Source: a virus
Taxonomy: Duplodnaviria; Caudoviricetes
Reading direction: 5' to 3' (one strand)
IMG/VR virus record: IMGVR_UViG_3300030061_001844
Location: 1-40,682 of that record
Length of the DNA stretch: 40,682 nt
Shown: positions 7,441 through 32,359 of the stretch, one piece after another
Position numbering within the stretch: position 1 is the stretch's first letter
How the letters are laid out: every line of letters begins with the position of its first letter
Position numbers and translations under genes: made by a program
The notes under the pieces: generated by a model
The model's input: only the letters and a program-made list of their open reading frames with translations
The model's database searches: none
What the model was told of the DNA's origin: nothing

Positions 7441-9501
7441 TTACTTCTTGTTAGCAATCTTTACTTGCTCAATCTTGTATTCCCAAGTGTCCATGAAGGC
7501 AGGGATTTCTGTGATTGGAGTCATTACTTTCTTACCATTTGTCTTTGCGCTGTAAGGAATCTTGAATTGGTCGGGGTTATCACTCAACCATTGACCCATA
7601 GCATTGAAGTCATCAACAGGTTCACCGGTGTGCGCGGCGTAAGCATTGACAGCACCCATAGCAATGTCTTCAAGAAGGTTTGCGGCTTTGTCCGATTTCT
7701 TCATCAACAGTTCAATACCTTGCTTGCTTCCGTGAAGAACTCTCTTACCATCAGTGAAGATAGGGTTGTGAGTAATCGTGCCAGTCAAAACTTGCGCGGC
7801 GTGGAATGCACTACCGACTGCGGCTTTGTCTGCTTCGGTCTTATCCAAAGCGACATAGTTAACATCGGGGTTCATCCAACCTTGCATCATAGCATTGTAA
7901 GCGTGTCCGTGTCCAACCTTGACAGCATCTTTGGTCATCATTGCGGCAGTCACAACTAAGTTTCCGTCTTTGTCCTTCGGGATTTGGTCAATGTCACCAG
8001 CCTTGATAGTCAACTTAGGTTGAGATACAAGTCCATGCTTGGCGAATGAGGTCATCACTTTGTCAAACACATTTGCTTCGATAGGAATGTGTCGTAAGAT
8101 GTGCATAGCAATCAAGTTCTTACGAGATTCAAGAAGCGCATTGCCAAGTTGGTCAGCAAACAGTTGAGGGTCGAACTCCGAAACAACACCTTTCATGTGT
8201 CGAATCTTGTTTCGGTCACCAGCCATCAGTAGTGCTTGAACTCCACCGCGTGCGGCAAGGTTGCCACAGTAAGTGCGGAGAACAGTCATGAATGCTTGGA
8301 GAGCAGACTTACCATCGTGAGCGTTGATGATTGATACACCAACACGATGTCCACCTTCTTCTTCGACAAGCGCGTCGCTGATTCTGTTAGCAGAAAGATT
8401 GACATAACCAAAGTTGCTAAGTGACTTAGCAGATTCGTTGCGTGTCTTGGTGCTGAATGCAGTGAGGTCAAGGTTGAGCATAGCACGCGCACCCTTGTTG
8501 AAAGCGAACGCGTCGTGACTGATGAGTTCAGTTCCCGACTCAAGTTCATACTTGAATTTGTTATCACCTATATCCACTTTCTTGTAGACGCAACCGTTAG
8601 CCATGTTGATGCCTCGGCAAGTATCAATGACAGGGTTGAATACATCGGGGTGTTCAACTACCTCAAAACCAGCACCAGCGGCGCGGTTGATACAATGTCC
8701 AAGTGGTTCATCTTCTGTCGCAAGAGTTGGGTTGAAGATAGCGTTGATTCGATTGTCACCTTTTGCTGTGGTAATGTCGTGGTAAGTAGTTGTTGATTGA
8801 CCAGTAGTTGGGTCAACTGTCACATTACGCGCAACCAATTCGTATGTCTTGGTGCGGAAGTTCCATGCACCAACATTCTCATGTCGCTTTCCACTAACCA
8901 TAGCCTTGCTGATGTCGCTTGACATCGTTGCTTTGATTGCTTCGGATTCAGCGTAGCGTTCTTGGCGTGCCTTTTCAGCATCCAAGATTGCTTTCGTCTT
9001 CTTCTTGGCAGTCTTTTCTGCGGCTTCTTCAACGGTTTCATTCTCATCAAGAACAAAGTCTGCGAGGTCAACACCAAGCGCGTCACCAAAGTTCGGCACT
9101 TCATCGTCGTGTGTCGCATCTGTCATGTCAAACACAGGGGTGTCATCGTTGCTTGGTGTCGCATCTGTCATGTCAAACACAAGGTCGTCATCGTCGGATG
9201 CTTGGTAGACTTCACCAAACTCAATCCACATGTCAGCAATGACTTTCAGCACAGCGTCGCCGTCAGTATCGTAAGTGTAGTTTGAGGCTACACTAATATC
9301 AACACTGTTGACTTTCGCGTCTTCCAACAAGAACACAGTCCAGTTTGAACCGTGTTGTATGGTGTGCTTGATGCACGCATTAGGAACGAACTTCTGTCCT
9401 TCCCATGCGTTAGATTCAATCACCTTCATGTCGTTCTTTTCATCTTGCGCTACACCAATAACGATGGTGCGCGGGGCTTCATTTTTCTTAGGGTCTTTCA
9501 T
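7441..9501 (-). CDS. DUF932/DUF945-like protein with long acidic N-terminal extension
   Basis: IINAHDGKSAL...LRTYCGNL...IRH matches the DUF932 N-S-H-D-G...R..C.N...H signature. Confidence 0.7.
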   Translation of the reverse strand: MKDPKKNEAPRTIVIGVAQDEKNDMKVIESNAWEGQKFVPNACIKHTIQHGSNWTVFLLEDAKVNSVDISVASNYTYDTDGDAVLKVIADMWIEFGEVYQASDDDDLVFDMTDATPSNDDTPVFDMTDATHDDEVPNFGDALGVDLADFVLDENETVEEAAEKTAKKKTKAILDAEKARQERYAESEAIKATMSSDISKAMVSGKRHENVGAWNFRTKTYELVARNVTVDPTTGQSTTTYHDITTAKGDNRINAIFNPTLATEDEPLGHCINRAAGAGFEVVEHPDVFNPVIDTCRGINMANGCVYKKVDIGDNKFKYELESGTELISHDAFAFNKGARAMLNLDLTAFSTKTRNESAKSLSNFGYVNLSANRISDALVEEEGGHRVGVSIINAHDGKSALQAFMTVLRTYCGNLAARGGVQALLMAGDRNKIRHMKGVVSEFDPQLFADQLGNALLESRKNLIAMHILRHIPIEANVFDKVMTSFAKHGLVSQPKLTIKAGDIDQIPKDKDGNLVVTAAMMTKDAVKVGHGHAYNAMMQGWMNPDVNYVALDKTEADKAAVGSAFHAAQVLTGTITHNPIFTDGKRVLHGSKQGIELLMKKSDKAANLLEDIAMGAVNAYAAHTGEPVDDFNAMGQWLSDNPDQFKIPYSAKTNGKKVMTPITEIPAFMDTWEYKIEQVKIANKK
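9111..9181. repeat. 26-bp direct repeat, period 45 bp, encoding VFDMTDAT twice
   Basis: GTGTCGCATCTGTCATGTCAAACACA at 9111-9136 and 9156-9181. Confidence 0.95.
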
Positions 9502-9503
9502 AT

Positions 9504-10145
9504 TTAATCCTCCTTATTTTTGTGTCCGTTGGACTGTGATGTGACATCGCTTTCGATGTCGGGGCTTTCGCTCATGTCAAAATCATCCATGTCGAATGTG
9601 ATTTCTTCTTCTGCGGCGCGCGCCATAGAATCAGATTCGAGCGACGGTATAAGAACATTCTCATCCGCGTCTATTAGATTTGCAATCTCATCGTGCATGT
9701 CAAACTCAAACTCCGAGAAGATAATATCCTCTTCGGTCATGCGTTTGTCTTGAATATCTTGAGCGTCTTGTTCAGCGATGAGTTGTTCAATCGCTTCGGG
9801 TGTATGGTTGCGAGCAAACTTGTCAAAGGTAAGTGAGCAAATGCTTACTCCACAATTAGAGTCATCGCAACAGTAGTGTGTGTTCTCCATCTTACCTTGT
9901 TGAATTTTGTAAGACAATGCTTTCCATTGTCCACCGCAACGAGGGCATTCGCGAACATACTGTGGTGGTATGTGTGACATGTTCCTGTGCGGGTTGAGAT
10001 ACTTCTCCTTCAAAGGGCTTTGAGGTCGAACAAATCCATTCATGACAATCATGTATTCACCATCACCAAGACTATTGGTAGCCATGCTGATGACTGTGTG
10101 CTTGTCGTCAAGTAGCGTGTGAAAATCTTGTGTGCTGAAACTCAT
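9504..10145 (-). CDS. Zn-ribbon protein with acidic tail
   Basis: CPRCGG...CCDDSNCG; D/E-rich C-terminus containing three FDM motifs. Confidence 0.8.
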   Translation of the reverse strand: MSFSTQDFHTLLDDKHTVISMATNSLGDGEYMIVMNGFVRPQSPLKEKYLNPHRNMSHIPPQYVRECPRCGGQWKALSYKIQQGKMENTHYCCDDSNCGVSICSLTFDKFARNHTPEAIEQLIAEQDAQDIQDKRMTEEDIIFSEFEFDMHDEIANLIDADENVLIPSLESDSMARAAEEEITFDMDDFDMSESPDIESDVTSQSNGHKNKED

Positions 10146-10516
10146 TGTGAATCCCCCGTTGGTTCAAAGCCAAGCAAGTCACATGCCAACTCATGCATCA
10201 GTTGATTGATTGCGGCTGTCACATCAGCATCTTCAACAACGGGTTGCATCTCTCTCCACTTTGCATTCATGTAGCAGTATGCGCTTGGTTTGTCACTGTA
10301 ATAGTTTGGATTAGCGCGGTATTTCTCAAGCGTTCTTTCCATCGCTTGGTCGTAGGTTTTGTAGCCGTAGTTAGCCATCAAATCCATAGCCTCACGCATG
10401 AGGCTGTTGCTGTCAGTATTTCCATTGTCAATTGCGTTGAGGTTGTCAACTGCCATCTGTCTTCTGTCTTCTTTCAATTCTTCTTCATTCATTTGTTCCA
10501 CCTTCGGTGTTGTCAT
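10142..10516 (-). CDS. Hypothetical protein
   Basis: 124-aa helical ORF in the co-oriented gene run. Confidence 0.75.
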   Translation of the reverse strand: MTTPKVEQMNEEELKEDRRQMAVDNLNAIDNGNTDSNSLMREAMDLMANYGYKTYDQAMERTLEKYRANPNYYSDKPSAYCYMNAKWREMQPVVEDADVTAAINQLMHELACDLLGFEPTGDSQ

Positions 10517-10745
10517 CCATACTCATGATGTATTCATCATGCGCGTGGAGAATAGGAATGACATAACTCATTCGTGCGGCAAGCGCACCAAGTTCTGTCG
10601 CGGGACCGATGAGTTGTGACCCATCGGGAGAGTTGATGAACACGATTCGGTCATGAACAAGTGTGCCGTAAGGCATCTTGAGAATAACTTCGCGCCCAAT
10701 GTCTTCATCTGTCCAACCATCTTGAGGGATAGGTGTTGGCTTCAT
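10485..10745 (-). CDS. Hypothetical protein
   Basis: 86 aa; TAATG overlap and GGAGG RBS. Confidence 0.7.
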   Translation of the reverse strand: MKPTPIPQDGWTDEDIGREVILKMPYGTLVHDRIVFINSPDGSQLIGPATELGALAARMSYVIPILHAHDEYIMSMDDNTEGGTNE

Positions 10746-11032
10746 TAGTCTTCGCCTCCTGTTGTTAATGTAGCAATGTAGAAATCCGCATCGCTGACTT
10801 CATCAATCACAAGTGAGTAATCACCTTCGGCAATCAGCATTAGGTCGCGCCCCTTCAAGTTGGGTAGTAAGTTAGTGATGAAGTATAGACGCGCCGCTGT
10901 ATCTTTTACTTCTTCTCTAAAAGAATTAGAAGTGTATCTATCAACATGAGTAATGTAGTTAGGGTGTATAACAAAGTTAAGGAATCCATCTTCGTTCTTT
11001 TGTTTTGGAAACTTTATTTCATATCCAGTCAT
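10745..11032 (-). CDS. Hypothetical protein
   Basis: 95 aa; ATGA overlap and GGTGA RBS. Confidence 0.75.
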   Translation of the reverse strand: MTGYEIKFPKQKNEDGFLNFVIHPNYITHVDRYTSNSFREEVKDTAARLYFITNLLPNLKGRDLMLIAEGDYSLVIDEVSDADFYIATLTTGGED

Positions 11033-12242: not shown

Positions 12243-13820
12243 TCAAGCATTTTGCTTGTGGACTATGTGTGCTGGGTTGATACCGTTAGTGTGGTATCGT
12301 ATCTTCTCATGAGGTATTCCTGTATCATGAATGAGGTTAAAGAACGAGCGATAGTCACCGCTTTCTAAATCGTTATACACGAACATCCAAATGTCCTTGT
12401 GCTTCGCGCCTCGGAAGACACGACCAATCGTTTGAATACGAGAGCGCACATTGTTTGTGCCACTCATCATGATGACACCATCCATGTCGGGTGCGTTGAA
12501 ACCCTCCTTCAATGATTTACATGTGAGTAAGATGTCGGAGGCTGACCTCTCCCATCGCTTGAGTTCTTTCGTTGCGTCTTCTCCATACTGTGCAAGTCGT
12601 CGCTTGAATGCTGGGTTGTTGAGTTCGGGGTATGTTTGATAGACATGTGGTGGTAGTGTAGTAAGACCGCTGTGATATACATGAGGGTTGATACCAATGT
12701 TCTTACACATACCATTGAGTCTTTCGATACCAAAGATTGTTTCATGGAACAGCGCATACTTCTTACCGATGTTGCTTGTCAATACTTGTTGCGCCGCGTC
12801 GAATCTGTTCTCCATCTCATTCATCAATCGCTTGCGTTCATTACAACGCGCTTGATATATTCCTAATGCTTGACGAGCCTCACCACTCAATCCCCAATTG
12901 GTTCGGGCAAAGAGGTTGTTCGCGTTGCCACCTTCTTCACTCACTAACTTGTAGCACTTGTGATAGAGTTTGGATATGCGTTCTGTCAAATCTTCATACT
13001 CAATCAGTTCGGATTGAGTCATGTTGATGTGAACGACATGGAATGTAAAGTCGAGTGCATCATCACCGTTGCGTGACTGTTCGATACCTTCGATTAGTTT
13101 GAGGTGAAACTGAATACCAACATCGCAGTCTTCACCACTACAAACAGAACCCACAGGAGATGTATTCATTTCACACATAACACAGACACCATCACTACGG
13201 TTTGGTGTTGCGCTAAGTAGAAGACAACCATCACCTTGAAAGGTTCGGAGTGTGCGAAGCGCAACCTCTCCACCTGCTCGGTGACATTCATCAAGAACCA
13301 TTAGCAGTGGTCTGTTCTTCAAGTGATTGAGTGCTTTCACTTTCTTGAGCGAAAGGTAAGTGGTGATATAAACATCCTTGTGAGGAGCGCGTTCATTATA
13401 TCCACCACCAATACGACCGCATGTGAGTTGCCACATACGAACAGTGGTTCGCGTTTGATTGAGTAGTTGCTTGGATGGCACAACAAATACGATAGCGGGT
13501 CTGCCTGTCTTTCTTGTTGGTGAACGAAGGTGTCCGTCGTGTAGCCAATTGTGCATGACAGTAATAGCAAGGCGAGTCTTACCTGCACCTGTCGCGGCTG
13601 ACACACACATTCGAGGCTTCTCAAGACCGAGCCACTTGTTGTATGCTTTTGCTTGCCATAGACGCGCACCCTCTTCCAACTGTTCACCTGTTCGGTTGCT
13701 TGGTAGCGATGCTTTCATCTTAGCATGGTCTTCGGCAGTCAAGACTGTGCTTGCTACGCTTTCATTCATATCAAACTCTATTTCTTCTTCGACATTCATG
13801 TCAAATATTATTTCATTCAT
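12243..13820 (-). CDS. Superfamily 2 (XPB/Rad25/ResIII-like) helicase
   Basis: AATGAGKT, VVPS, DECH, SAT, EGFNAP and QTIGRVFR motifs. Confidence 0.92.
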   Translation of the reverse strand: MNEIIFDMNVEEEIEFDMNESVASTVLTAEDHAKMKASLPSNRTGEQLEEGARLWQAKAYNKWLGLEKPRMCVSAATGAGKTRLAITVMHNWLHDGHLRSPTRKTGRPAIVFVVPSKQLLNQTRTTVRMWQLTCGRIGGGYNERAPHKDVYITTYLSLKKVKALNHLKNRPLLMVLDECHRAGGEVALRTLRTFQGDGCLLLSATPNRSDGVCVMCEMNTSPVGSVCSGEDCDVGIQFHLKLIEGIEQSRNGDDALDFTFHVVHINMTQSELIEYEDLTERISKLYHKCYKLVSEEGGNANNLFARTNWGLSGEARQALGIYQARCNERKRLMNEMENRFDAAQQVLTSNIGKKYALFHETIFGIERLNGMCKNIGINPHVYHSGLTTLPPHVYQTYPELNNPAFKRRLAQYGEDATKELKRWERSASDILLTCKSLKEGFNAPDMDGVIMMSGTNNVRSRIQTIGRVFRGAKHKDIWMFVYNDLESGDYRSFFNLIHDTGIPHEKIRYHTNGINPAHIVHKQNA

Positions 13821-14092
13821 TGTAATCCCTCATCAATTTGTTCAGCGCGAGTATCAATCCAATCAGCGTCGCTTGGTGTGAACCAATCGGTAAATCGCTG
13901 ACCGATTATGTGGTAAGGGTCAAGACCAAGCCATTGATAGTTAATCAATTCAAGGTCTTCAATCCACTCATCGCAAGCCGTGACATAAGCCTCGGTGCTT
14001 GAGTTGTAGGTATAACCTGCTCGCTCTTTGTCTTCTTCACTAAGGGATGAATACCATTCAACCCAACTGTTCGATGTGTTTTCGTTTTTCAT
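13817..14092 (-). CDS. Trp-rich acidic hypothetical protein
   Basis: 91 aa; ATGA overlap with the helicase. Confidence 0.7.
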   Translation of the reverse strand: MKNENTSNSWVEWYSSLSEEDKERAGYTYNSSTEAYVTACDEWIEDLELINYQWLGLDPYHIIGQRFTDWFTPSDADWIDTRAEQIDEGLQ

Positions 14093-14099
14093 TTTTCCA

Positions 14100-14384: not shown

Positions 14385-14399
14385 CAACCGTATGGTTGG
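14385..14399. promoter_or_regulatory. Near-palindromic operator-like site CAACCGTATGGTTGG, copy 1
   Basis: Identical 15-mer at 15829-15843; both copies are intergenic. Confidence 0.6.
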
Positions 14400-14585: not shown

Positions 14586-15695
14586 TCAAAGGGTGTCAAG
14601 TGAACCAATGTCAAGGTTGTTGTAGTCCTCATCAGTCATTCTACCGGATGATGTAGGAGTCCAGTCATTCTTAACCAAAGGCCAGTGCCAAGACTGTGCT
14701 TGACCACCAATCACCTTTGAGTCTGCCACTTCTTCGTTGATACCAATGAATGCTCGGAACGCTTCACGGAAGTCATCGGATACAGACCAAGCAAATCGCG
14801 CTGTCCAAAAGTTTCTCTCGGATTCAAGGACAACATAAGCGGCCATTTGAAGAGTGAATCTCTTAGCGGCTTGGTAGTTGCCAGCACCACATAGTTCGGG
14901 GAACCAAGAGCGAGTCTTGTATGTCTTACCGGTCTTTTCATCAGTCCACTTCTTGTTTCGCTTTGGAGCGATACAAAGAACATCAGCGGCAACCTTGAGA
15001 AGTTGAGTATCCCAGTCAATGGCATTCGACAATTGCTTCGGGTTCAATTCCTTTCGACCGGAGAGAGTCATTTCATAACCGTCACCGTTCTTGTTGGTCT
15101 TGTGAAGGACTGCCTTAGCCATGTTGATTTCTTTGTCGGTGACACCTTTGATTGCCAGTTTGACACCTTTGTTCCAATCATCAAGGACAAAGGAAACCTC
15201 GGTAGCGTCTGCCAGTTCTTCTTCTTCTTCATCGTCAAAGTCTTCATCGTCATCAATGCCAGCAGATTCAGTCGAAGTCATGCTGAAATCAATTCCCGCA
15301 TCTTCTTCTTCTTCTTCTTCTTCATCGAAGTGCGAAGCCACAAAGTCGAATGCCAATTGGCACAAGTTGTTTAGGCTCTTTGCTTCTGTCAACATCAGTT
15401 TGAATACTTCAAGGACTTTCACTTTGTCAGTCTTGGCATTGATACCGGTGGTATTGCCTTTCTTGTAGTAAGCGTCGATACGGCTATGTTTGATACCCAT
15501 ATTCTTTGCCAAACGGATGATGAAAGTGGCGTTGTTGGTTGCTTTCGCACTGCCGCTGTTCTTCACAGTCTTTACTTCGTTCATTTTCTCCCCCAATGTA
15601 TTATAGAAAGCCTCGTTGTCTTTAGCGACAACTACCGCTTTGCACATTACACCAAGTGTATTGTTCAGTTCATTCCTCATGCTTGTTTTTTCCAT
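14586..15695 (-). CDS. Hypothetical protein with central poly-acidic tract; first gene of the leftward arm
   Basis: 369 aa, GAGGTAA RBS, own promoter and terminator; DEEEEEED...DDDEDFDDEEEEE. Confidence 0.85.
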   Translation of the reverse strand: MEKTSMRNELNNTLGVMCKAVVVAKDNEAFYNTLGEKMNEVKTVKNSGSAKATNNATFIIRLAKNMGIKHSRIDAYYKKGNTTGINAKTDKVKVLEVFKLMLTEAKSLNNLCQLAFDFVASHFDEEEEEEEDAGIDFSMTSTESAGIDDDEDFDDEEEEELADATEVSFVLDDWNKGVKLAIKGVTDKEINMAKAVLHKTNKNGDGYEMTLSGRKELNPKQLSNAIDWDTQLLKVAADVLCIAPKRNKKWTDEKTGKTYKTRSWFPELCGAGNYQAAKRFTLQMAAYVVLESERNFWTARFAWSVSDDFREAFRAFIGINEEVADSKVIGGQAQSWHWPLVKNDWTPTSSGRMTDEDYNNLDIGSLDTL

Positions 15696-15790: not shown

Positions 15791-16054
15791 CGCGCTCTTG
15801 CCGCGAAAAGGAGAGCAAGAACGCGTGACAACCGTATGGTTGGAGGCGCGATGGAATCGCGCCGGAAACCCGCGATAAAGCAACCGCGAAACGCGCTACT
15901 GCGCGACTGTTTCCCATGCGACATAGTGCATAAGCGCGTGGCGATTACCAGCGCGAATGCTTCGCGCTTTACCGCGAGTTCCTCGCGGAGTATTTGCCCG
16001 TCGCGTTAGCCGGAGTCGCGCTCGCGGCGCGACAATTTGCCCTCCTTAACCGCG
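15791..16054. other. CGCG-dense non-coding region at the strand switch (candidate ori, pac site or terminus)
   Basis: 19 CGCG tetramers counted by hand, followed by A/T tracts at about 16070-16111. Confidence 0.6.
15829..15843. promoter_or_regulatory. Operator-like site CAACCGTATGGTTGG, copy 2
   Basis: Identical to 14385-14399. Confidence 0.6.
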
Positions 16055-16155
16055 TGCGAAATACAGATATTTTTTTCGTGGGGGTCAAAAAAAAATTCCA
16101 GCCATTTTTTTATCAACCGCTATGTTCAAGGGTGTGGTTGTCCTCCCATCCACTA

Positions 16156-19100
16156 ATGCGTCCGAGTGTCCGTGTTGTTAAGTCGGTTGACGAGGGACTA
16201 ATCCTCAAGGAAACCAATCAACAGAAAAAAGACAAACGCAAAGCAGAACGCGATGCGGCAAGAAAAGCCAAAAAAGCGGCACGCAAAGCAAAAAAACGCG
16301 GTGAGAAACCACCAAAGCAAGTAAAAGTTGTTGACAAAAAACCCGCCGCGGAGGAAAAATTTGACCCGTTTGAAGGAAAAAATATCGACCCCGCACAAGA
16401 AAAGGCAAGGGAGAAAATAAAAGAGGCGGGTGAAAAAAGACGCGCTGAAAACGCTAAACGCGTAGATGCTTTGCGCGAAAAAGCAAGAAAAAGTCGCGAA
16501 AGAAGAAAGAAAGAACAAGAAGAGTCCGGGTTAAGCCCCGAAGAGTTCCGCGAAATGAAGGAACTTGAAAGACTCGTAGCCGAAGAAAAGAAGGCTAAAA
16601 CTGTCAAAGTAGTTGACCCTCCCGCTAAAGAAGAACCTCCTAAAGAAGAACCTCCTAAAGAAGAACCTCCTAAAGAAGAAAAGCCAAAGACCGTCAAAGT
16701 AGTTGACTCCGCAAAAGATGACAAAGAAGGAAAAGGCGGTAAAACACAAAGAGGTTTCGCGTCTTTAGCACCTTACATGGCTGAATTAGTCAGTCGATAC
16801 AAAGATGAAGAAATAGACGCGACTGAATTTTACGAAGACATAGTTTTCGCTAACAATATGCTTTTGGGTCGTGCTTTAGGACAAGAGAAGGATGAAATGC
16901 TACAAGAGCGCGAAGATGGCTTTCCCGCTATGCTTCACGAACCATTCTTAAACGCGCCTGTTATGATGCATTTGAAGAGGTTGTCGAATGAGTTCCCCGA
17001 ACTCAAAGATGTGCAAAAAGCAGATGAAGAAATGAACGGTAGTTTAGAAAATGCTATGGGCGGAACGCGAGGAATACGCGCTGATATTTCATCCTTCATC
17101 GCAGACCCATTGAATGAGGGCAGACCTCATCAAGAAAAAGACATCAATGGTATTTACAAACTTCTTAACAAATACGACCACCCTCTCGGTGTCACGCTGT
17201 CGGCGGAGATACCAAAGAGTGACCGTATCGTTCCCACTTACAGACCAAGAGAAGCGCGAAAAATTCGTGTTGCTGGTCGAATGCAAGACCCTTCATTTGA
17301 ACAAGAGATGAACCGATTACGCGATGAGCAGATGGAGAACTTGAAGTTTAGAGAAGATAAACGATTTACTACGGACCGCGATAAAGGCGGAGCGAGTAGA
17401 TTTTACGATAAGTTGTTCGGAGAAGGTGAAGTCAACCTAAGAAGAGAAAAAGGACAAGAAGGCCAGTCAAGTTTTCAACTTAAAAACCCTTCATCATCAA
17501 CAACACAATCCATACTCAACCAAGTGCGAGATATTGCGCGTGAAGAATCTGTTGATGAAAAAACCGCTTACAAAAAAATGATGGAGAAGTTCAACGATTA
17601 TATGATTTCATTGACAGGGAACAAAGCGTTCGGAACATCGGGGCGCGCAGGTAGAACTGGACAAGAAATAGAAGTTGGGCGTTCGCCGGACGCAATTACG
17701 CCTTCTATGGTTGATGCCGCGAAACAACTTGGGTTGTCTTCTGCTGTGGCAAACATGCCCGATTTGTTAGTGAGTCGATACATGAAAGACCCTAAAAGTG
17801 CATTCAGTCAAAAAACGCGTAATGAATTGGCCGATGAGTTAGCGGGTATGGGTCAAGAAGGTTTTCACCCAACGCTAATATCTGCTATGGGTGAAGAAGG
17901 ACTCTTGAGTAGTCTATTTGGTGATGAAAGCGCGGTGACTGTCGAGGGTGCTGGGCCGGGTGGTTCACAAGAAGAAGTGGAACAAAGAGCCAGTGAAGCG
18001 CGAAGAGCAAGATTTGGTGGGGTTGCAACTGAATCTTCAATGATGGAACCCGAAGATGAACTCGCGGTTGTTCAAGGTAAAAGAAAATTATCACCATCTC
18101 AACGAATGACACAACTTGAGCGACAATTCAATCAAGGTGATATTGACGAGTATGAATACGAAATGCAACGCGCGGCAATCAATTTAGACCAACACAAATT
18201 AGACTCGGATGCTGAATTAGGTGGCTTAACTGGTAATGATTTCGAGGTTGGTCACGCGTATCACGGTTTGAGTGAAGAAAAACTCATCGAACAATCAAAT
18301 AATTTTGTTGACAACCTCATCGGTATGGCGCGCATAATGCGAGAAATACGACACAAAGCATACGATAACAATGGTGCGGAAACAGACCAAGAAAAACACG
18401 ATGTTGATAAGAAGTTGGAGGCTATTGGTTTAACCGCAGAAAACTTTGTTGCTTTTGGTAATATTGAAAACGCAACATACGAAGACAAGCAACGCTACAA
18501 CAAACTCGATGAAATCATAAGCCCGGAACAATTAGTTAATACAGCAAAAAAAGGTGATAAGCCAAAAATGAAGACTATTGCTGGCACAGGCACTTTAGCA
18601 GTAATGCTCCCTATTATGACTTCGCGGCTGAATCGACAACACGACATGATGAAAGATATTGGAATGTCAAATGTTGATTTAGTGAAAGCGGCGATGAAAT
18701 ACGCTAATGCTGATATGGGTGTGAATGGATACAAGGAGGCTTTTGCTTCGTTAGGGGCGCAAGCACAAAAAGGTAAATTGAACACATATCCAATATATCG
18801 TTTGTTGCAGTATTTGAGGAAAAAAGGATACCGTGAAGCACTCGATGAAGCGCACCATCAAAAAGTCGAAGAACAACAACGAAAGTTTGCAAAGAACCAC
18901 ACTGCGCGTCAAGCAATGAAAGAAGAGGCTAAATTCACACCTGCTTCGGAATACGATATTGAGGCAGGTGCGCCCGAACACATGGAACATATACTCCACG
19001 ACAAAGAAAAGTGCCTTTCATGTCACGAAGACCGATTTGGCACAAGAGATGCACCAACAGCGCGAGCGCATTCACCAGTTAAGGGTGATAAATCACCCTT

Positions 19101-22100
19101 TGCTCACAAGTCTATCACACTCCCGCAATTTACAAATTACAAAAAACGCGGACAAGATTTCCCATTAGATGTCACCGGCTCTACTGAAAATGAAACTTCA
19201 CTCGCCGCTATATTGAGGCACATTTACCCCGAAGATGACAGATACAACCACAAAAAGTTGATGAGTCGAAAACAAAAATATCTTGATAATCCAAAATTAA
19301 ACACTTACGAAGGGTTCATCAAACCTACAACTCGACAGTTCAAAAATAAAATCAAGCAAGCGGTTATCACAGGTCACCCACGCGCGGCTAACATTTTCAA
19401 GAAGTTTGGACTTTACCGAACAAAGGAGAACGGAATAGCAACTGGCCCAGCAGGGATGAGCAACAAAGAGTTGGTTGCTTCTTCATTCTTCATGAACAAC
19501 GACGATTCAATCGACAAGCACCAAGAATCAATGCGTAAGAGAACACTTCTATCGACGCGTTTCAATGCGATTACTGATGCTATGCATTTCATGGAAGAAC
19601 TCGCAGACGGCGACTATGGTAGCAAAATCAAACCGGGTGCGCTAAAGAGTAGAGCCAACCGAATCGCGTTATTGGGTGAGATGATAAATGAACCCACTAA
19701 AGGTATTCAAAAAGAAAATAGAAAGATTGAGAAAAGAAAGCGGGAAATTGATACTTACAAAAACCTATATCGACAATATATAGATGATAAAATGGCTTAT
19801 GATGCTAATTTAGCAAAAACGAAACCAACATATCAATTGTTTAATGAATTGACAGGAAAAATTCGCGGTGAATTTGAAACAAAAGAAGATGCAGAAAAAG
19901 CAATCAAGAATATGAAAGATAAAGACAACAAACCCGATACTTACATGCAAAGTATCCACTCGGTTCAAGAACAACGCGGTGAATATGATTCACCGGGTCA
20001 AATAGCAATGATTGAAGCACAGGCTGATGAAATCGACAAGAAATATGGTAAAATGTTGATGCTCCGTAAGAAGAAATTGAGAGAGATAAAATCATACGAA
20101 AAGAAAGCCGCTAAGTTGAAAGACGCGAGCGAAGATAACATCAATCGAACAAATGAATACATGCTTGGCGCGTTTATCAATTCGGGCGATAAGATGGCTA
20201 ACATATTCACCAAGATGAAAAAATCACCGGAGGGTGTAAGTCAACACGCTTTGATGGGTATGCTCGCTGAATTGCATGATGATATGTATGGCGATGATGA
20301 TTATGATTCGGTGCTTAGAGGCGACGCGAGTGGGAGAACGGACAAAGACTTCACTCATTCACTAAGCAACTATAAACTCGGTAGAATGGGCGAAATGGGT
20401 GGAACGGGTGTTATGAGTTTGACCAATAACAAAGCCCTCCCGCGAATCAATTCAATCAACCAACTGCTCGCTCATCGCATTCAAATGGGATTCCCTCTCA
20501 CAGAAGAAGATATTGAGCGCGCTAAGGGTATGTTGCATGATGCTGATATGGCGGATACTGTTGACAAAGAAGATTATAATGAGTGGTCGAAAGGTTTGAC
20601 CATAGATGATGATGTTGATTTCAATATGTCCGAATTAGAACATGAGCATCATGATGATTCCGAAGACGACTTGGGGTTGCTAACAGAAGAAGAGGCGGCG
20701 CGAAGAGAACAAAACTCACACTTTACAAAAGGTAGTGAAAAGGCGATAGAGAACGGTGACATTGAAGCCCATAATTTAGTATCCAATTGGAGAGGTAATG
20801 CACCAACTTTGTGCGGTGTATGTCACGGACATCGGTTCGTGACAAGAGATGAAGCGGTATCATACATTCGTCATCGCATACCCGGTATGGAAGGTGTAGG
20901 TCGCGAGAGTTCAAAGATGAACAACTATATCGCTAACAAAATGAGGCCGCGTGGGTTTGCTTCTTACGATGAACACCCTATGGCTGATGAAATGGACCCG
21001 AATGAACACGAACAATTCGCGTGTCCAGCCTGTGAGCATTCAAGTGACTATGTTCAAGGTGGTAAATGTAGCAACGGTCTTTGTGGTGATTGTTTTGGCA
21101 CAGGTGAGCGCGACCCAACGGATGATGAACATATCCAAGAAGGATACATAGACGCGGAGGGAAATAAAATTGATGGAAAAAACCACCACTATTCGCATAA
21201 TGGAATGGTGGGTGAGAAGTTCGATTACCTCAACCAACTTCTGCTAAGACATGCAGAAATGGCACAATCGGGTGAAATACCGGATTATTTGAAAGATATA
21301 GTCAAACCTCAATCACCAGTGTGGGAGCAGTTTGATAAGCATGTAGGTTCGGGTAAATTTCAAACATTTGAAGATGAGCGTGAAGCGCGCAGAAAGAAGA
21401 AATTAGAACCGTTGGTGATTGACCCTAACGCGCCGGAACTACCCGCCCCACCACGCGCGAGAAGTCAATTCCGAATCGAACAACCCGACGAAGGTGGTAT
21501 GCCGCAGATTGACTTCGATATGAGTGAAGAAAAACCTTTCCAACTAAATATTGTGAACAATTTAGCAATGCAAAAGCATCATGAGATATTTTTGAAGAAG
21601 CATCTTGACATTCTATACAAATCGGCTCTTCAAGGTCAACCCCAAATGAAAGAAGAAATTAACGAATTATACGCCAGCATCGTTAATGACCCAGCACTAC
21701 AAGACATTCACAATGACGAAGACCACCATTTGATTGAAAAAATACACGAACTACAAGAAATCGCGGATGCGAATTATGTTGATGATATTAGCGACATCGC
21801 GAGTTTGAGTGCTAAAGAGAGAAAGGCGATGCGCGCAAAACGAAGACAGTTGCCTGTTGACGAAAACGGTGATTTGCAATTGACTATGGATGATGTGTTT
21901 GGTGGAAATGCGCCAATGTCTTTCAACGCCTTCGATAAATATACTCCTAAACACGGACACATGCAAACAGAAACCGAAATACGAGAAGGGTTATTTGAGC
22001 CGGGAGAAGACAATCAACCAAAACCAGTGACAATGAAGCAATTGAGAAGTTTTTTCATGGGGCGACCGGATGTATTGAAAATGCTCAATAGAATTGAAGC

Positions 22101-23259
22101 CAGTGAAAAATACAAATCGGAGAGTGCTGAAAAAATTAAAAGCGCGCTTGATAGTGTTGAAAAACCATTAGTGGCGCGAAAAACAGGCAATATGTATAGC
22201 GAATCACTCAATGATATTTTGAAGCAGTTTGGTGAAAAACCAATGACACAAGAGATGGGTTCTTATCAATTGACTTACAGTGATGAAGCGTTAAAAGCAT
22301 TTAAAGAAGCGGGAGCAACAAATGTTAATTCATTGATGACTGTCAAAAACAAAAATAATCTAAATCGTGCATTAGATGAAGGATACACCCGCGAAAGAAG
22401 TGCAACGATGAAACCGTTATGGCAAGAGTATGTCATGCGAAAAGCACTTCAACACTTCATGTCGAATGTGAATAACCCTCTTCAATACCCAACAATACCA
22501 GCAGGTATCAATCAAAATAACTTCGCTGAAATGGTGGGAGAAAACAGCGGGTTGTTTCAATTGATGAAAGATGAGGCCGCGAAAGTTGCTGGTTATGAAG
22601 ACGAAGAAGATTTGGAAAAGAAACTCAACATGTCAACAAGCCCGACTGTCGGCGGTGTAAAGTTGAATGTTAACGAGTTTAAGGCAGATGTTTTGAAGAA
22701 TGCGACACACGAAGACTCACATCAACTGCCGATGGGTTATATTCGATACGATAAGAAGGGTAAAGGCAAAATGGTTGCTAAAGACGCTGAAACTATACTG
22801 AATGAAAGTCAAGAACAATTGTTAAAACCTAATGATATGAAGAAATACGAAAACGCGATAAGAACTGTCAACTACAACATGAGGCCAAACTACATGAGAA
22901 TGAAAGAGATTAGGAGTGTATTGCATGGCGAAGACGGCAAACACGACGGCTACGATGGTTATGAAGAACTTGCAACAGCATTTACCAACAAAGCATTACC
23001 GGCGGAACAACAAGCGTTGTTAGAAACCAGTGGTCCGTTGTTGAAATTATCTCATCGACACCTTACTCCAATTTCTTTTGCTGACGCGCAATCGTATGCT
23101 TTAGCCGCGGAAGAAAATAAGAAATTCCAAGAAGGACTGAAAGCGCGACGAGAAGGAACATTGTTAGGTCCAGTGCCTATCACTCAACCAATTCAGCAAC
23201 CAATTCAACAACCAATTCAACAACCCCAACAACAAATTGATTTCAACATGGATTCTTGA
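16156..23259 (+). CDS. Giant (2367-aa) charged protein with Cys/Zn motifs; possibly virion-internal
   Basis: Likely start ATG 16156 (MRPSVRVVKS); the upstream TTG extension runs through the non-coding CGCG tract. K/E-rich; CLSCH, CGVCHG, CPAC and CGDCFGTG motifs. Confidence 0.85.
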   Translation: MRPSVRVVKSVDEGLILKETNQQKKDKRKAERDAARKAKKAARKAKKRGEKPPKQVKVVDKKPAAEEKFDPFEGKNIDPAQEKAREKIKEAGEKRRAENAKRVDALREKARKSRERRKKEQEESGLSPEEFREMKELERLVAEEKKAKTVKVVDPPAKEEPPKEEPPKEEPPKEEKPKTVKVVDSAKDDKEGKGGKTQRGFASLAPYMAELVSRYKDEEIDATEFYEDIVFANNMLLGRALGQEKDEMLQEREDGFPAMLHEPFLNAPVMMHLKRLSNEFPELKDVQKADEEMNGSLENAMGGTRGIRADISSFIADPLNEGRPHQEKDINGIYKLLNKYDHPLGVTLSAEIPKSDRIVPTYRPREARKIRVAGRMQDPSFEQEMNRLRDEQMENLKFREDKRFTTDRDKGGASRFYDKLFGEGEVNLRREKGQEGQSSFQLKNPSSSTTQSILNQVRDIAREESVDEKTAYKKMMEKFNDYMISLTGNKAFGTSGRAGRTGQEIEVGRSPDAITPSMVDAAKQLGLSSAVANMPDLLVSRYMKDPKSAFSQKTRNELADELAGMGQEGFHPTLISAMGEEGLLSSLFGDESAVTVEGAGPGGSQEEVEQRASEARRARFGGVATESSMMEPEDELAVVQGKRKLSPSQRMTQLERQFNQGDIDEYEYEMQRAAINLDQHKLDSDAELGGLTGNDFEVGHAYHGLSEEKLIEQSNNFVDNLIGMARIMREIRHKAYDNNGAETDQEKHDVDKKLEAIGLTAENFVAFGNIENATYEDKQRYNKLDEIISPEQLVNTAKKGDKPKMKTIAGTGTLAVMLPIMTSRLNRQHDMMKDIGMSNVDLVKAAMKYANADMGVNGYKEAFASLGAQAQKGKLNTYPIYRLLQYLRKKGYREALDEAHHQKVEEQQRKFAKNHTARQAMKEEAKFTPASEYDIEAGAPEHMEHILHDKEKCLSCHEDRFGTRDAPTARAHSPVKGDKSPFAHKSITLPQFTNYKKRGQDFPLDVTGSTENETSLAAILRHIYPEDDRYNHKKLMSRKQKYLDNPKLNTYEGFIKPTTRQFKNKIKQAVITGHPRAANIFKKFGLYRTKENGIATGPAGMSNKELVASSFFMNNDDSIDKHQESMRKRTLLSTRFNAITDAMHFMEELADGDYGSKIKPGALKSRANRIALLGEMINEPTKGIQKENRKIEKRKREIDTYKNLYRQYIDDKMAYDANLAKTKPTYQLFNELTGKIRGEFETKEDAEKAIKNMKDKDNKPDTYMQSIHSVQEQRGEYDSPGQIAMIEAQADEIDKKYGKMLMLRKKKLREIKSYEKKAAKLKDASEDNINRTNEYMLGAFINSGDKMANIFTKMKKSPEGVSQHALMGMLAELHDDMYGDDDYDSVLRGDASGRTDKDFTHSLSNYKLGRMGEMGGTGVMSLTNNKALPRINSINQLLAHRIQMGFPLTEEDIERAKGMLHDADMADTVDKEDYNEWSKGLTIDDDVDFNMSELEHEHHDDSEDDLGLLTEEEAARREQNSHFTKGSEKAIENGDIEAHNLVSNWRGNAPTLCGVCHGHRFVTRDEAVSYIRHRIPGMEGVGRESSKMNNYIANKMRPRGFASYDEHPMADEMDPNEHEQFACPACEHSSDYVQGGKCSNGLCGDCFGTGERDPTDDEHIQEGYIDAEGNKIDGKNHHYSHNGMVGEKFDYLNQLLLRHAEMAQSGEIPDYLKDIVKPQSPVWEQFDKHVGSGKFQTFEDEREARRKKKLEPLVIDPNAPELPAPPRARSQFRIEQPDEGGMPQIDFDMSEEKPFQLNIVNNLAMQKHHEIFLKKHLDILYKSALQGQPQMKEEINELYASIVNDPALQDIHNDEDHHLIEKIHELQEIADANYVDDISDIASLSAKERKAMRAKRRQLPVDENGDLQLTMDDVFGGNAPMSFNAFDKYTPKHGHMQTETEIREGLFEPGEDNQPKPVTMKQLRSFFMGRPDVLKMLNRIEASEKYKSESAEKIKSALDSVEKPLVARKTGNMYSESLNDILKQFGEKPMTQEMGSYQLTYSDEALKAFKEAGATNVNSLMTVKNKNNLNRALDEGYTRERSATMKPLWQEYVMRKALQHFMSNVNNPLQYPTIPAGINQNNFAEMVGENSGLFQLMKDEAAKVAGYEDEEDLEKKLNMSTSPTVGGVKLNVNEFKADVLKNATHEDSHQLPMGYIRYDKKGKGKMVAKDAETILNESQEQLLKPNDMKKYENAIRTVNYNMRPNYMRMKEIRSVLHGEDGKHDGYDGYEELATAFTNKALPAEQQALLETSGPLLKLSHRHLTPISFADAQSYALAAEENKKFQEGLKARREGTLLGPVPITQPIQQPIQQPIQQPQQQIDFNMDS
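16625..16680 (+). repeat. 15-bp tandem repeat (about 3.7 copies) encoding KEEPP
   Basis: CTAAAGAAGAACCTC x3 plus a partial copy. Confidence 0.95.
23185..23225 (+). repeat. 12-bp tandem repeat encoding QPIQ
   Basis: CAACCAATTCAR x3 plus CAACC. Confidence 0.9.
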
Positions 23260-24875: not shown

Positions 24876-25766
24876 ATGCTTGGAAATAAACCTCAAAACG
24901 ATTTACTGACGCTTGCCGCACAAACACAGATGAGTCTTGCTCAAATGCAACAGCAAGCGACCGCTCAAGCCGCTATGACGAACGCAAAATCGCATATTGA
25001 AGTGCCTCAAGTCAATTTTTACCCCTCTCGTCATCCAAATCCTAAAAAAGCGCGCCGTCAAGACATAAAACAGGCATATAAACTCCTAAAACCGATAAAA
25101 AGAAGCATTTTTTCGCCTCGTAGGTGGTGGGGAGGCAAATATCGCTATAATACTAACACAATGCGCTGTGTTGTGGACGGATGTGATGTTGAATACCTAT
25201 TACGGACCGCTGGAAACATCTATGAGCAGGTTATTGACGAAGAAACTGGTCAATCTCTATGGGATTTGTATTGGAAAAACCCTGTGACTGGTGAAGTTGA
25301 AGCGTTTGTAGCCCGCGAAAATGTCACTTCGGGGCGTAAATTGAAGGGGACATATTGCCCCGAACACCTCCATTTATACCATTTATTGACAAAATGGCTT
25401 AAAGAAGACGAAAAAGAAGAAGAAGAAACTAATGGAACACTCAAAGCAAAACTGAAAAGAGGTGTTTCAACCGTAGTTGTGCCAATAAATAGCATCAAAA
25501 AGAAGGATAACACACCACCAATTCTCGCAAAATATGAGCCATTTTTTGAAATGTTGAAAAAAGACAACATTCCTGTGACACATTTTGCTAACTCCGCGAC
25601 AGGAACGAATGATTTGGTTATGGTTGTCTTCGATATGCGTCAATTTCAAGCGGGTAATAACTCAAGGTTGCTTTTTGACGCTCTTGCTATGCATCAATTA
25701 CAACAAAACGCGGTGCAATCTCACCCATTGCCTTTACCGACACAATCAAATGATGGGAGCATGTGA
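24876..25766 (+). CDS. Hypothetical protein with putative Zn site and Gln-rich termini
   Basis: CVVDGC...YCPEH; Q/A-rich N-terminus. Confidence 0.8.
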   Translation: MLGNKPQNDLLTLAAQTQMSLAQMQQQATAQAAMTNAKSHIEVPQVNFYPSRHPNPKKARRQDIKQAYKLLKPIKRSIFSPRRWWGGKYRYNTNTMRCVVDGCDVEYLLRTAGNIYEQVIDEETGQSLWDLYWKNPVTGEVEAFVARENVTSGRKLKGTYCPEHLHLYHLLTKWLKEDEKEEEETNGTLKAKLKRGVSTVVVPINSIKKKDNTPPILAKYEPFFEMLKKDNIPVTHFANSATGTNDLVMVVFDMRQFQAGNNSRLLFDALAMHQLQQNAVQSHPLPLPTQSNDGSM

Positions 25767-25775
25767 GGTGGTATT

Positions 25776-28828: not shown

Positions 28829-30597
28829 GCGATATTATCCTCAAGGGTAAGGGCGTGTGGTATCGCGATGGTGAAGGAGTGATGCACCCACAATCTTTCC
28901 CTCCAACAGATTCCGACCACGAAAATATATCTCATTTTCACATTAACTCTAAGACAGGAAAACCATTCAAAGAATTGGGTGGTAAAGGCTTAGTAGGTAA
29001 GTTTCCTATCGAGATTGCCGCTGGTATTTTAGCCCGCGAATTGATGTCGCAAGGATACAAAGATGAAACAGGAGCAAGAAGAAAACCAGTGAGTGAGGCT
29101 TCAGCGTTGCGTTTAGCAAAAACTGTCTTCAACAATGCAACCAAGCGTTTCAATGACATTAAAAGAAAGGCTGGTGATGATTTCAATGTTCTCCCTATGA
29201 AGTTTGATGAAAACGGCATATTGAATGACGAATACAAGAATAATCATTACGGAGGACATCAACCGCGCCGTGTTCGGACTGCGAAGAGAACAACGCGAAC
29301 AAAAGATGGAAAAGTCATCAATAATCACCCGCGTAATCAACTACACGATGACCTCGGACAACATCTTGAATCCGCGGCTTTGCATATTTTTGATGAGTTG
29401 CGACAAGAAGCAGAAAAAATGGGCGTTAGCACAGAACTCGCGGCACAGCAAAATGTTATCGAGCCACAACAAATAACAGATGGTGTCACTCATCGCTACA
29501 CTTCAAATGATGCAGACCCCACATCTAAGTCAAACACAAAATATCCAAATCACTACAAAGACCTACATGCGCAAACTGCGGCATACGGTGAAATATCACC
29601 TATGGATATTGTTTCCGTATTACCAAACGACTTCTTTGTCCCGTCAACAGGAGGCGGAATGTCAACAAGAATAATGAATCAACTTAGAGATATGGGATAC
29701 GACCAACCTACGGCTCGTTCGATGGCTCGCGCTCCTGTGAATCAATTACTTTACGGCAGTGGTAAAGAAGGTCGAGAAAGTGGACTCAACAAGGTAGTTC
29801 GCAACATGCGCGCTAAATTACAAGTCGATTCAAATAATGATATTCATGCCATGTTCAAGAATCACCGCGACCATATTGCACCAAAAATAAGGGGTGGCGA
29901 TAACGGGAGGAATAACAAAGCAGTTGAGATATTGGCTTTGTTGAAATTAGCAGAACAGATGGGAGTTGACCCCGCTCAATACTCGATGTATCAACAAGCA
30001 CCTCAATCCGTAATGGGGGGTTGGCGTGATGTTGCTACGGCAGAAGGTGGTAAGCAAATAGATATGGAGGCTCTTGGGAGTGTCAATGAAGGACACAGCA
30101 TGAGAGGTAAATTTGCGGGTGATATGGACCACATTTTTAGAGAGTTTCCCGACCACTTAAGCGGCGGCTCACCCGCTGATGTTTTACCAGCGCAACCGAT
30201 TTTGGACGATAAACCAATGAGTGAACCTGCACCTGCTTTGACTACACAACCTCAACTCGCGCTCCCTTTGGGGCAACAACAAGATTTGTCACAATTTAAT
30301 CCGTTCTCCGCAGGGAGAGAATTTGCAATGTCCGATGACGACCCAATGGGTGTCATCGCGACTATCATGGAGCGTGTGCAATTACATGAAGCAGGTGGCT
30401 CTTTATTGGTAAAATATGACCCTATGGATAATTATGATATGCAACGATTGGGTCAAAATGTTGGCCTGTCGAGTCTTGATGTTCGCGCGATTGCAATGTC
30501 GATTGGTGATTGGGATGTTTTGGCGAAATCTTTTAACACGACGCATGATGTGGTCCGCGACATCAAGCGTGCTTGTGGAGGCGTAATTTATGGTTGA
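28825..30597 (+). CDS. Hypothetical protein
   Basis: 590 aa; GAGGTGG RBS and ATGA overlap. Confidence 0.85.
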   Translation: MSDIILKGKGVWYRDGEGVMHPQSFPPTDSDHENISHFHINSKTGKPFKELGGKGLVGKFPIEIAAGILARELMSQGYKDETGARRKPVSEASALRLAKTVFNNATKRFNDIKRKAGDDFNVLPMKFDENGILNDEYKNNHYGGHQPRRVRTAKRTTRTKDGKVINNHPRNQLHDDLGQHLESAALHIFDELRQEAEKMGVSTELAAQQNVIEPQQITDGVTHRYTSNDADPTSKSNTKYPNHYKDLHAQTAAYGEISPMDIVSVLPNDFFVPSTGGGMSTRIMNQLRDMGYDQPTARSMARAPVNQLLYGSGKEGRESGLNKVVRNMRAKLQVDSNNDIHAMFKNHRDHIAPKIRGGDNGRNNKAVEILALLKLAEQMGVDPAQYSMYQQAPQSVMGGWRDVATAEGGKQIDMEALGSVNEGHSMRGKFAGDMDHIFREFPDHLSGGSPADVLPAQPILDDKPMSEPAPALTTQPQLALPLGQQQDLSQFNPFSAGREFAMSDDDPMGVIATIMERVQLHEAGGSLLVKYDPMDNYDMQRLGQNVGLSSLDVRAIAMSIGDWDVLAKSFNTTHDVVRDIKRACGGVIYG

Positions 30598-32359
30598 AAG
30601 TTGGGAAATAGAATGGAATAGCAGTATGATTGAACACGGTCGCGACTTAGGAACTATGGAATTTATTTTCGCAAAAGGCGGCAACCTCTCGGATATGAAC
30701 TATGTTATGTTCGATGTTCAAGACAACAGTTGGGAACCACTTATCAAGGCTGTCGCGGAGCGCGACAACTCTCACCCCGACATTATTCGGAAGAATGCTG
30801 AACCGTTCATGGCTAACCGCGACCAACGAGCCGCGCAACCATTCATGGGAACAGCAGTGACAAGTCCTCGTCAAGCAACGCAACAATACAACACAGCACA
30901 GCGAATGTCCAACCTCGCTAACTACGACGCTGACCCTACCGCAATGAACGCTATGCGCGCCGGAAAATACGGAACAGCCGCAGGTAAAGGTCTTGCCGCC
31001 GCAGGTCGCGGTATCATGGGAGCAGGTCGAAAAATGGGCGAGATGGGCGGTCGTGCTATGGCTGGTGCAAAAGATATGGGTGGTCGCGCTCTTCAAGCAG
31101 TAAAAGACAGTGGTATGGGCCAACGCATGAAGAACTTCATGGGTGCGGCAGGTCGTGGACTTAGCGACTTACGACATGCCCCAGCCGCGGCAAAACAAGC
31201 ATTTAGAGATAGTCGCGCAAGACGCGAAGATGAAGAACGAAGAAATGCACTTGAAGGTGGTCTTGGTCGCGGGTCAAAAATGGAAGCAGAAACCGAGCGA
31301 AGAATGGTTCCGGGTAGTCAAAACTTTGACGCAAACATGGATAGAGCGCGGGGAGCCATCAATCAACAACTTGCTCGCGATTTCAATGTTAATCCAAATA
31401 CTAACAAAAAAGGTAAGCCGACTGAATCAGTTCAAGATGCCATGCGTCGTGAAATTCAAGAAATTGGTGACAGACGCGCTCAACCAAAAGAAGGTTTCTT
31501 CGCTGGTATGAGCCGCCGCGGACGCGAGCGACGCGCTGGCAATCAAGCACAAGCAGAAGGAGCGGCATACGCGCCTTCTAACATGGCAACCGATGAGCCG
31601 GAACGAGTGCCTCTCCCTGCTGGACCTTCAACTGACGCGGAGCAAGCGGCAAACGCAGACAAAGTTCCCGAACCGGAAATTGAGTTTGATATGACCGAAC
31701 CGGAAACAGGAACACCACCACAAGACGCGGGGCAACCAATGAAGGTTGAAGCCGAAGAGAGCGCATTAACTGATAAACAAAAACAGGCTATGGAGATGTT
31801 TGACAAAGTGCAAGAAAACAAGCGCAAGCGAATGGCTATGGAAGGTGGTGCAGAAACCACCGGCGACCTATTCGTTGACGACGAAGGTGAAGTCATAAAC
31901 CCAGCACAAACGGAAACCGCTACGGCTACTGAACCATCTTTCGGACAAAGATTTGCTACCGAGGCTGGTATGAAAATGGGCGCACCTGCGGGTGATAGAG
32001 TCCGTGGTGGATTAGACAAAGTGTTCGGCCAACACCAAAAAACTCCATTCGCTGACCGCGATGCGGCAATGCAAGCCATGTTGCAAAGTGGTGTAGGAAC
32101 AAAAGGGATGACTACTGCTGGTAAGTTCAGTGGCAAATCAGCACAGGCTGTTGAAGCGGCTTTGATGGAAATGGGCTTTGGCCCAGCAGAAGCAAAAAAT
32201 GTCGCGCAACAAGCAGAAGCAGGTAATCCCGATGCAAAAGAAATTGTTGAAGAAGCAATAGATTTCGACATGGGTGAAGATGCTATGGGAATGAAACTAA
32301 GTGAAGACAACCACGCGGCATCATGGGATTCTGTTTTGAAAGGACTTAATGTGCGGTGA
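30590..32359 (+). CDS. Ala/Gly/Met-rich, largely disordered protein
   Basis: 589 aa; GGAGG RBS; overlaps the terL start. Confidence 0.85.
   Translation: MVESWEIEWNSSMIEHGRDLGTMEFIFAKGGNLSDMNYVMFDVQDNSWEPLIKAVAERDNSHPDIIRKNAEPFMANRDQRAAQPFMGTAVTSPRQATQQYNTAQRMSNLANYDADPTAMNAMRAGKYGTAAGKGLAAAGRGIMGAGRKMGEMGGRAMAGAKDMGGRALQAVKDSGMGQRMKNFMGAAGRGLSDLRHAPAAAKQAFRDSRARREDEERRNALEGGLGRGSKMEAETERRMVPGSQNFDANMDRARGAINQQLARDFNVNPNTNKKGKPTESVQDAMRREIQEIGDRRAQPKEGFFAGMSRRGRERRAGNQAQAEGAAYAPSNMATDEPERVPLPAGPSTDAEQAANADKVPEPEIEFDMTEPETGTPPQDAGQPMKVEAEESALTDKQKQAMEMFDKVQENKRKRMAMEGGAETTGDLFVDDEGEVINPAQTETATATEPSFGQRFATEAGMKMGAPAGDRVRGGLDKVFGQHQKTPFADRDAAMQAMLQSGVGTKGMTTAGKFSGKSAQAVEAALMEMGFGPAEAKNVAQQAEAGNPDAKEIVEEAIDFDMGEDAMGMKLSEDNHAASWDSVLKGLNVR

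Follow-up and report, generated by a model that had tools for sequence, protein, structure and literature searches.

The sliding-clamp-binding motifs of T4 and RB69 lie at the C termini of gp43, gp55, and gp33; as described in the passages of PMC2988020 concerned, they are short hydrophobic and acidic peptides on flexible linkers of unrelated viral proteins, the polymerase included, they are conserved across the family, and in T4 one viral hub reads them. The Rubisco-binding motif of the Chlamydomonas pyrenoid is one motif, often in multiple copies, on unrelated proteins, which it addresses to a shared compartment, and its reader, Rubisco, is known and slow-evolving (passages of PMC7673724). 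The tandem repeats of Borgs, which are archaeal mobile elements, are fast-evolving disordered regions with units that resemble short linear motifs (SLiMs); these repeats are reported to arise independently, and the passages of PMC9879509 concerned describe no genome-specific unit in a fixed set of unrelated genes. Here we report on a short peptide tag ending in F-[DNS]-M that recurs in six unrelated proteins encoded by a 40,682-nucleotide (nt) stretch of viral DNA (IMG/VR record IMGVR_UViG_3300030061_001844, positions 1 to 40,682; "the window" hereafter means this whole stretch), by gene content a group A-type magrovirus (Apasviridae), a virus of marine archaea.

The tag resembles the clamp motifs in its composition, flexible setting, and unrelated viral carriers, but the magrovirus polymerase is untagged, the sites mostly lie inside the protein or at its N terminus, and every genome has a peptide of its own, which places the tag outside the T4 class. 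It resembles the pyrenoid motif in its multiple copies and varied carriers, but turns over between near-identical viruses, and it has in common with the Borg repeats rapid evolution in disordered regions. Known docking motifs stay fixed, as hub and clients lock each other, whereas here what appears to be a one-hub, many-client motif has been rewritten, in as many as six unrelated genes, among viruses with core proteins that are 97-99% alike. Judged from sequence comparison, this genome-private motif, which changes jointly in six unrelated genes, is real and maintained at the protein level, while its mechanism is what we infer. The six client genes and their 13 peptides, all of them in frame and where the first-pass annotation of the window had placed them, are as follows.

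7441..9501, minus strand: DUF932-like protein (og35), 686 amino acids; Pfam PF06067 at E 1.1e-4, just under the cut-off.
9166..9183, minus strand: tag LVFDMT of og35.
9121..9138, minus strand: tag PVFDMT of og35, a 26-nt DNA duplicate of the LVFDMT site.
9504..10145, minus strand: zinc-ribbon protein (og49), 213 amino acids, with an acidic tag-bearing tail; 20 clear family clusters at 50% identity.
9693..9710, minus strand: tag FEFDMH of og49; orthologs have FEGDLH or FEIDLH there, within conserved flanks.
9585..9602, minus strand: tag ITFDMD of og49.
9570..9587, minus strand: tag DDFDMS of og49.
12243..13820, minus strand: SF2 helicase (og27), 525 amino acids; Pfam ResIII/DEAD/Helicase_C, phrog_16; two tags within the first 20 residues.
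13794..13811, minus strand: tag IIFDMN of og27.
13764..13781, minus strand: tag IEFDMN of og27.
14586..15695, minus strand: two-domain protein (og33), first gene of the left arm; N-terminal domain (1-120) hypervariable, as delimited by a structure model.
15276..15293, minus strand: tag IDFSMT of og33, in the interdomain linker.
15994..23259, plus strand: giant protein (og16), likely start ATG at 16156; variable, with conserved Cys clusters and no family match.
20614..20631, plus strand: tag VDFNMS of og16.
21508..21525, plus strand: tag IDFDMS of og16, in a slot where several orthologs have their own tag.
23236..23256, plus strand: terminal tag IDFNMDS of og16.
30590..32359, plus strand: Gly/Ala/Met/Gln-rich protein (og7), directly upstream of the terminase gene; conserved ends and two tag slots.
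31679..31696, plus strand: tag IEFDMT of og7.
32258..32275, plus strand: tag IDFDMG of og7.

Enrichment over a shuffled proteome, which the first-pass annotation had named as a check, proved strong. The 48 genes (13,152 amino acids) contain 14 copies of F[DNS]M, whereas shuffles average 3.2-3.7 copies and 0 of 1000 reach 14 at any of four shuffle window sizes; the excess is also seen for FDM (11 against 1.3) and [IV].F[DNS]M (10 against 0.35). When 44 called genes were counted per protein, 7 proteins had [IVLF].F[DNS]M with 0.7 expected (0/1000) and 6 had FDM with 1.3 expected (1/1000), but the loose F[DN]M was in no more than 6 with 2.3 expected (24/1000). The top gapped pattern of the proteome is I.FDM (p 9e-11), the best pattern among 12 shuffled proteomes reaching 2e-8. 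At the DNA level, TTYGAYATG has 13 matches, 11 of them in frame on the coding strand and two on the opposite strand. The 14th F[DNS]M, VVFDMR in the open reading frame (ORF) at 24876..25766, was excluded from the tag set because its flanks are low in acid and F[DN]M is kept in 37 of 37 orthologs of that ORF.

The acidic or disordered setting that had been proposed for the peptides holds for 11 of the 13 sites, around which the Asp/Glu fraction is 0.25-0.57 compared with 0.15 for the proteome, but not for two giant-protein sites (0.18 and 0.07); the low-acid terminal tag of that protein sits in a Gln/Pro-rich tail. Both modelled linkers, those of og33 and og35, are low-confidence segments between domains. 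In og35, alignment and model show a small beta-rich N-terminal domain (residues 11-95; predicted local distance difference test score about 85), a tag linker at about 97-135 (score below 50 for residues 100-183), and then a conserved core; the DNA repeat that had been noted in this gene is present as a 26-nt duplication at 9111/9156. Only 1 of the 13 sites is at a C-terminal end. The tag is short, enriched, position-independent, set in disordered context, and kept at the protein level, which are properties of a short linear docking motif; such a motif would in addition bind a defined folded partner.

The first-pass annotation had staked its motif on conservation in orthologs, and in this respect FDM itself fails: F[DN]M is found in 2 of 65 members of the og7 family, 1 of 4 helicases, 1 of 3 DUF932-like proteins, and 1 of 3 members of the og49 family, and in the three left-arm families (3-4 members each) the window copy is the only one that has it. 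What is conserved is the slot and the client set, and the peptide differs by genome. The tags of relatives, found by unbiased motif discovery in each genome and by slot-by-slot reading, include NTMPDL (G010, G026), DMNIDFG (G007), DDMxIDFG (G009), IDWGD/IDFGD (G011), LD[IV]GDI (G001), PLTEED (G013, in up to 9 tandem copies), FxEEDMP (G014), EEFVFN (X1), MFDLTL (Y1), PPPM (G003), as well as SPFNF, TFTFA, SISF, PTFD, PPVVFG, ELPSI, and more; about 30 variants were counted by eye, and further ones occur in the 20 clear og49 clusters. Tag chemistry ranges over aromatic strands, polyproline, and pure acid. Even viruses with DUF932 cores 98.9%, 97.9%, and 97.2% identical have different tags, usually related variants. 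Position is free as well, the helicase tag being N-terminal in the window and C-terminal in G013, G014, and L151. In G001, which is 98% complete, the six client families hold 13 copies of the tag, with one or two elsewhere (one in a 5,109-amino-acid tail protein), and it is absent from PolB, clamp loader, chaperonin, portal, and capsid.

Within a genome, the slots match each other. With slots cut by their conserved flanks, and after dropping 18 of 43 loci with identical slots and loci that lacked a slot anchor, 16 of the 25 distinct loci have a DUF932 linker whose best match is the og49 tail of its own genome (ties occur at some ranks), and most of the remaining linkers lose to a sister of the same tag class; the summed linker-tail score is 688 compared with a permutation mean of 454 (standard deviation 21; 0/100,000). 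The match extends across the two gene arms, as in 8 of 9 contigs the left-arm tags place their own og7 ortholog among the top two of 47.

The argument that codon variation places the constraint on the protein, which the first-pass annotation had made for the window, is supported by between-gene codon counts and by parallel changes in sister viruses. Identical residues in different genes have identical codons in 65 of 119 cases (50 expected; z 2.9) and, in a second comparison with pairs that are not independent, in 146 of 281 (117 expected; z 1.4-2.8), whereas tandem copies within a gene reach 157 of 230 (105 expected); the non-identical codons include two-step Ser changes. In the sisters G013 and G014, the same L/F and T/I swaps are seen in og49 and helicase, with the third codon base staying specific to each gene (CTC ACC / TTC ATC in one, CTC ACT / TTC ATT in the other). 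The FEFDMH site of the window was likely gained by point mutation, to judge from its orthologs. Codon differences between genes, the parallel point changes, and the FEFDMH site together argue that selection acts on the peptide.

We therefore regard the tag as a docking address of some kind, with a probability of roughly 70%. Of the original proposal of a docking tag for one hub, the enrichment, reading frame, flexible acidic setting, and codon variability stand, and the conservation of FDM in orthologs does not. That the client set is fixed, position free, the tag multivalent, and its copies matched within each genome suggests one binding partner. A peptide private to each genome argues against a conserved pocket of the hubs that had been named as candidates (PCNA, chaperonin, PAN, and RNA polymerase) as its reader. 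The comparison with PIP boxes and SSB tails survives in part. The PIP consensus is Q-x-x-[ILM]-x-x-aromatic-aromatic; the PIP box and the SSB C-terminal tail are both conserved over long distances, and the SSB tail sits on the hub, not on the clients. PIP spacing is found in 0 of 13 tag contexts and QxxLxxFF in none, so the analogy extends to the logic of linear-motif docking to a hub and not to class membership by consensus or conservation. T4-type capsid-targeting sequences are N-terminal, conserved, and limited to head cargo; unlike these and the prohead protease site, the tags are internal or at either end, are present also in early-arm genes and in an SF2 helicase, and are not conserved.

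Several results weigh against a docking address read by one partner, or against our account of it. The og7 ortholog of contig Y1 ranks 27 of 47 in the cross-arm test, the slots of L267 and L271 mismatch within their locus, and many giant-protein orthologs lack a tag. DNA copying occurs: og49 and og35 share 32 identical nt in L246, an identity of 17 nt is seen in L144, and in L145 an exact 49-nt piece of the og35 (DUF932) core is inserted in frame in the og49 tail (L145:3748-3796, L145:4557-4605), which may be a templated insertion or an assembly error in this one contig; between-gene codon identity is also modestly above chance. Tags used in co-variation tests were partly picked by eye, and no right-arm, head, or tail gene clearly tracks the tag beyond relatedness (best 6-8/300 permutations in about 35 tests). 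The virion location of og7 and og16 is one that we infer from gene position and composition. The copying and the excess of identical codons would be expected if binding were fuzzy, with any acidic segment bearing bulky hydrophobics being sufficient, as in acidic activation domains, and with the within-genome match arising from DNA copying. However, about half of the identical residues differ in codon, the longest shared DNA stretch stands out in just 1 of 25 loci (reached there by at most 3/60 codon-resampled nulls), and the parallel point changes and the likely de novo gain of FEFDMH require selection for the exact peptide, which makes fuzzy binding improbable.

A self-pairing beta-zipper would explain the within-genome match with no reader at all, and many tags do alternate hydrophobics (TFTFA, LTLTL, ITIDVGDITI), but proline-rich and strongly acidic tags form zippers poorly. 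A cleavage site or degradation signal of a virus-specific protease (a degradation signal was among the readings considered at first) fares no better, as a cut at tags lying at the extreme N or C terminus would remove little and the prohead protease, with a conservation of 78-96%, does not follow the tags. We consider zipper and protease signal, taken as one alternative, very improbable.

Returning to the docking address, we sought its reader by co-variation, leaving out genomes with no evident tag (G008, G017, G012). Some tail-region genes gave positive, nonsignificant partial correlations of 0.3-0.5 (n 5-7). The og33 N-terminal domain, with a mean identity of 26%, gave a partial rho of 0.42 with the tag (0/300, n 9, one of 17 tests) and, against its own linker tag with its own C-terminal domain controlled, 0.33 (0/1000, n 21), a value confounded by linkage; the more acidic the tag, the higher the net charge of the domain (rho -0.67, p 0.026, n 11, one near-duplicate). 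This signal counts among the results against our reading in one respect, since it disappears once near-duplicate genomes are left out and the tags come from other genes (rho 0.19, 219/2000; partial on the C-terminal domain -0.12), and we treat the domain as a candidate reader and a weak lead. The og35 N-terminal domain does not track tags (rho 0.0). A tag match is absent from PolB of G001, G025, and G026, and four PolB C termini end in the same PRPATYW whatever the tag, which disfavors a T4-like clamp as reader; the presumed clamp, og77, has no sequence match in the PDB. The region of og7 after HPDIIRK at first seemed tag-linked, but was rejected as reader because its few alleles do not follow the tag. 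As an observation in its own right, og7 residues at about 70-130, after the conserved HPDIIRK, occur in a small number of distinct alleles, whose reassortment is independent of the tag.

That no viral gene was found to track the tag, apart from the positive and nonsignificant tail-region values, could mean that the tag docks on one host (Poseidoniales) protein that varies by host species or in an arms race, with each virus refitting its six clients. An external driver accounts for simultaneous parallel change in several genes, and a host driver would be the simpler account of the parallel changes; moreover, distant viruses have similar tags (MxIDFG in G009 and MxLDFG in L244, with 26-45% identity in several neighboring genes). 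Against this, one pocket would need to bind TFTFA, PPPM, or DELED depending on the host, and even viruses with DUF932 cores that are 97-99% identical have different tags. We consider a host partner somewhat unlikely. That the partner is instead fast-evolving and encoded by the virus itself is a tentative proposal to which we would give a little less than even odds; we rank it slightly above a host protein because a tag range from aromatic to polyproline to acid is more easily reconciled with a hypervariable reader than with a conserved protein of the cell. The prokaryote genomes from a thermosome scan (80 records, none labelled Poseidoniales) yielded no DUF932-like relative, and a search of three of them for rhodopsin was likewise empty.

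Under the viral-partner proposal, the tag would bind as a short extended segment, and tandem copies, up to 9 per linker, would give avidity. The partner would assemble the four earliest left-arm proteins and the two right-arm proteins in one complex early in infection, and the two right-arm clients may be carried in the virion. Drift of the pocket in the partner would then select for re-matched clients, which could arise when several genes acquire the same point change, when a tag is duplicated locally, or, occasionally, when DNA is copied from one gene to its neighbor. It is conceivable, although we think it unlikely, that the result is a self/non-self address code, in which six early-acting proteins are privately marked and read solely by their own hub; the complex could then be neither used nor blocked by co-infecting relatives or by host factors that have learned the interface. 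If so, the roughly 30 natural variants would be a library of orthogonal tag-reader pairs. More generally, the system is a natural, many-fold replicated case of code change in a linear-motif network, it groups unannotated genes into a functional module in one of the ocean's most abundant kinds of virus, and it may provide orthogonal peptide-domain pairs; peptide-based tests are feasible despite the uncultured host.

The clients themselves have few recognizable relatives. Fold searches with the whole proteins gave nothing clear for og35 (only a weak SH3 match, E 0.81 over 54 columns) or for og33 (best Z score 4.2, no E <0.001), atlas searches with og33 and og49 reached only unnamed clusters below 0.9, and a scan with the og33 alignment found no further contig. 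The og49 protein weakly resembles a TFS/RPB9-type zinc ribbon (E 0.021). An RNA-polymerase-type D[FY]D[GI]D or DxDGD motif is absent from the giant proteins except for one match in one genome. We found no description of the tag in the openly readable literature searched on magroviruses, archaeal-virus SLiMs, SLiMs in phages, and DUF932; the words "motif" and "repeat" are absent from PMC10160649.

The window encodes terminase, portal, SNF2 helicase, and endonuclease; relatives with terminases 89-97% identical encode a Cpn60/TCP-1 chaperonin (4 of 24 records), and close relatives also encode PolB, RFC, primase, prohead protease, and major head protein. Group A magroviruses are described, in the passages of PMC5434244 and PMC11706807 concerned, as having the head-tail module plus a thermosome subunit, SNF2 helicase, and a homing-type endonuclease in the structural module, and the combined gene set of the window and its relatives, with its head-tail module and marker genes, fits these descriptions and supports the assignment to group A. 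In a search of a phage collection with the window, all matches were below 60% identity. Two other studies provide contigs that also cover the left-arm tag sites and that differ little or not at all over those stretches; of the differences between these contigs and the window, 40 were shown (33 more were not), and none of those shown lies in a tag. These contigs indicate that the tags are no assembly artefact. Other populations of this virus lack 272 nt at 13822-14095, holding the ORF at 13817..14092, and have different alleles at 10.5-11.3 kb (10495-11250).

Some further features were noted in and around the tagged genes. A palindrome, CAACC-(4 nt)-GGTTG, lies at 14385-14399 and 15829-15843, upstream of the helicase operon and of og33, and it is found at two equivalent places in G001, G007, G010, G011, G013, G014, L149, L151, L246, and L269, regardless of tag; it is a candidate early promoter or operator. 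The protein at 4659-4979 (minus strand) has the C terminus TFNPATGEFE, and a family-wide peptide, [FY][DN]PxTG[EAG][WF]E, ends the unrelated og42, og43, and og76 and some og49 proteins; as this peptide is conserved and not genome-private, it probably has a different partner from that of the tag. In the head-region genes of G001, G004, and G006, several proteins have a conserved W.LLK-type (W..LK-type) motif separate from the genome-private tag. Among small membrane-protein genes, 24113-24871 (plus strand) encodes a protein with an N-terminal hydrophobic stretch and the motifs GPTMVGKTT, DIGGQ, and NKAD, 83-93% identical in relatives; it has no Pfam or PDB match, and by eye we take these motifs to resemble G1, G3, and G4 of small GTPases. 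Finally, 39304-40680 (plus strand) belongs to og15, a protein of about 2,000 amino acids that is variable save for a highly conserved C-terminal block with K-x-D-G, and it is probably the structural-module DNA ligase named in PMC5434244.

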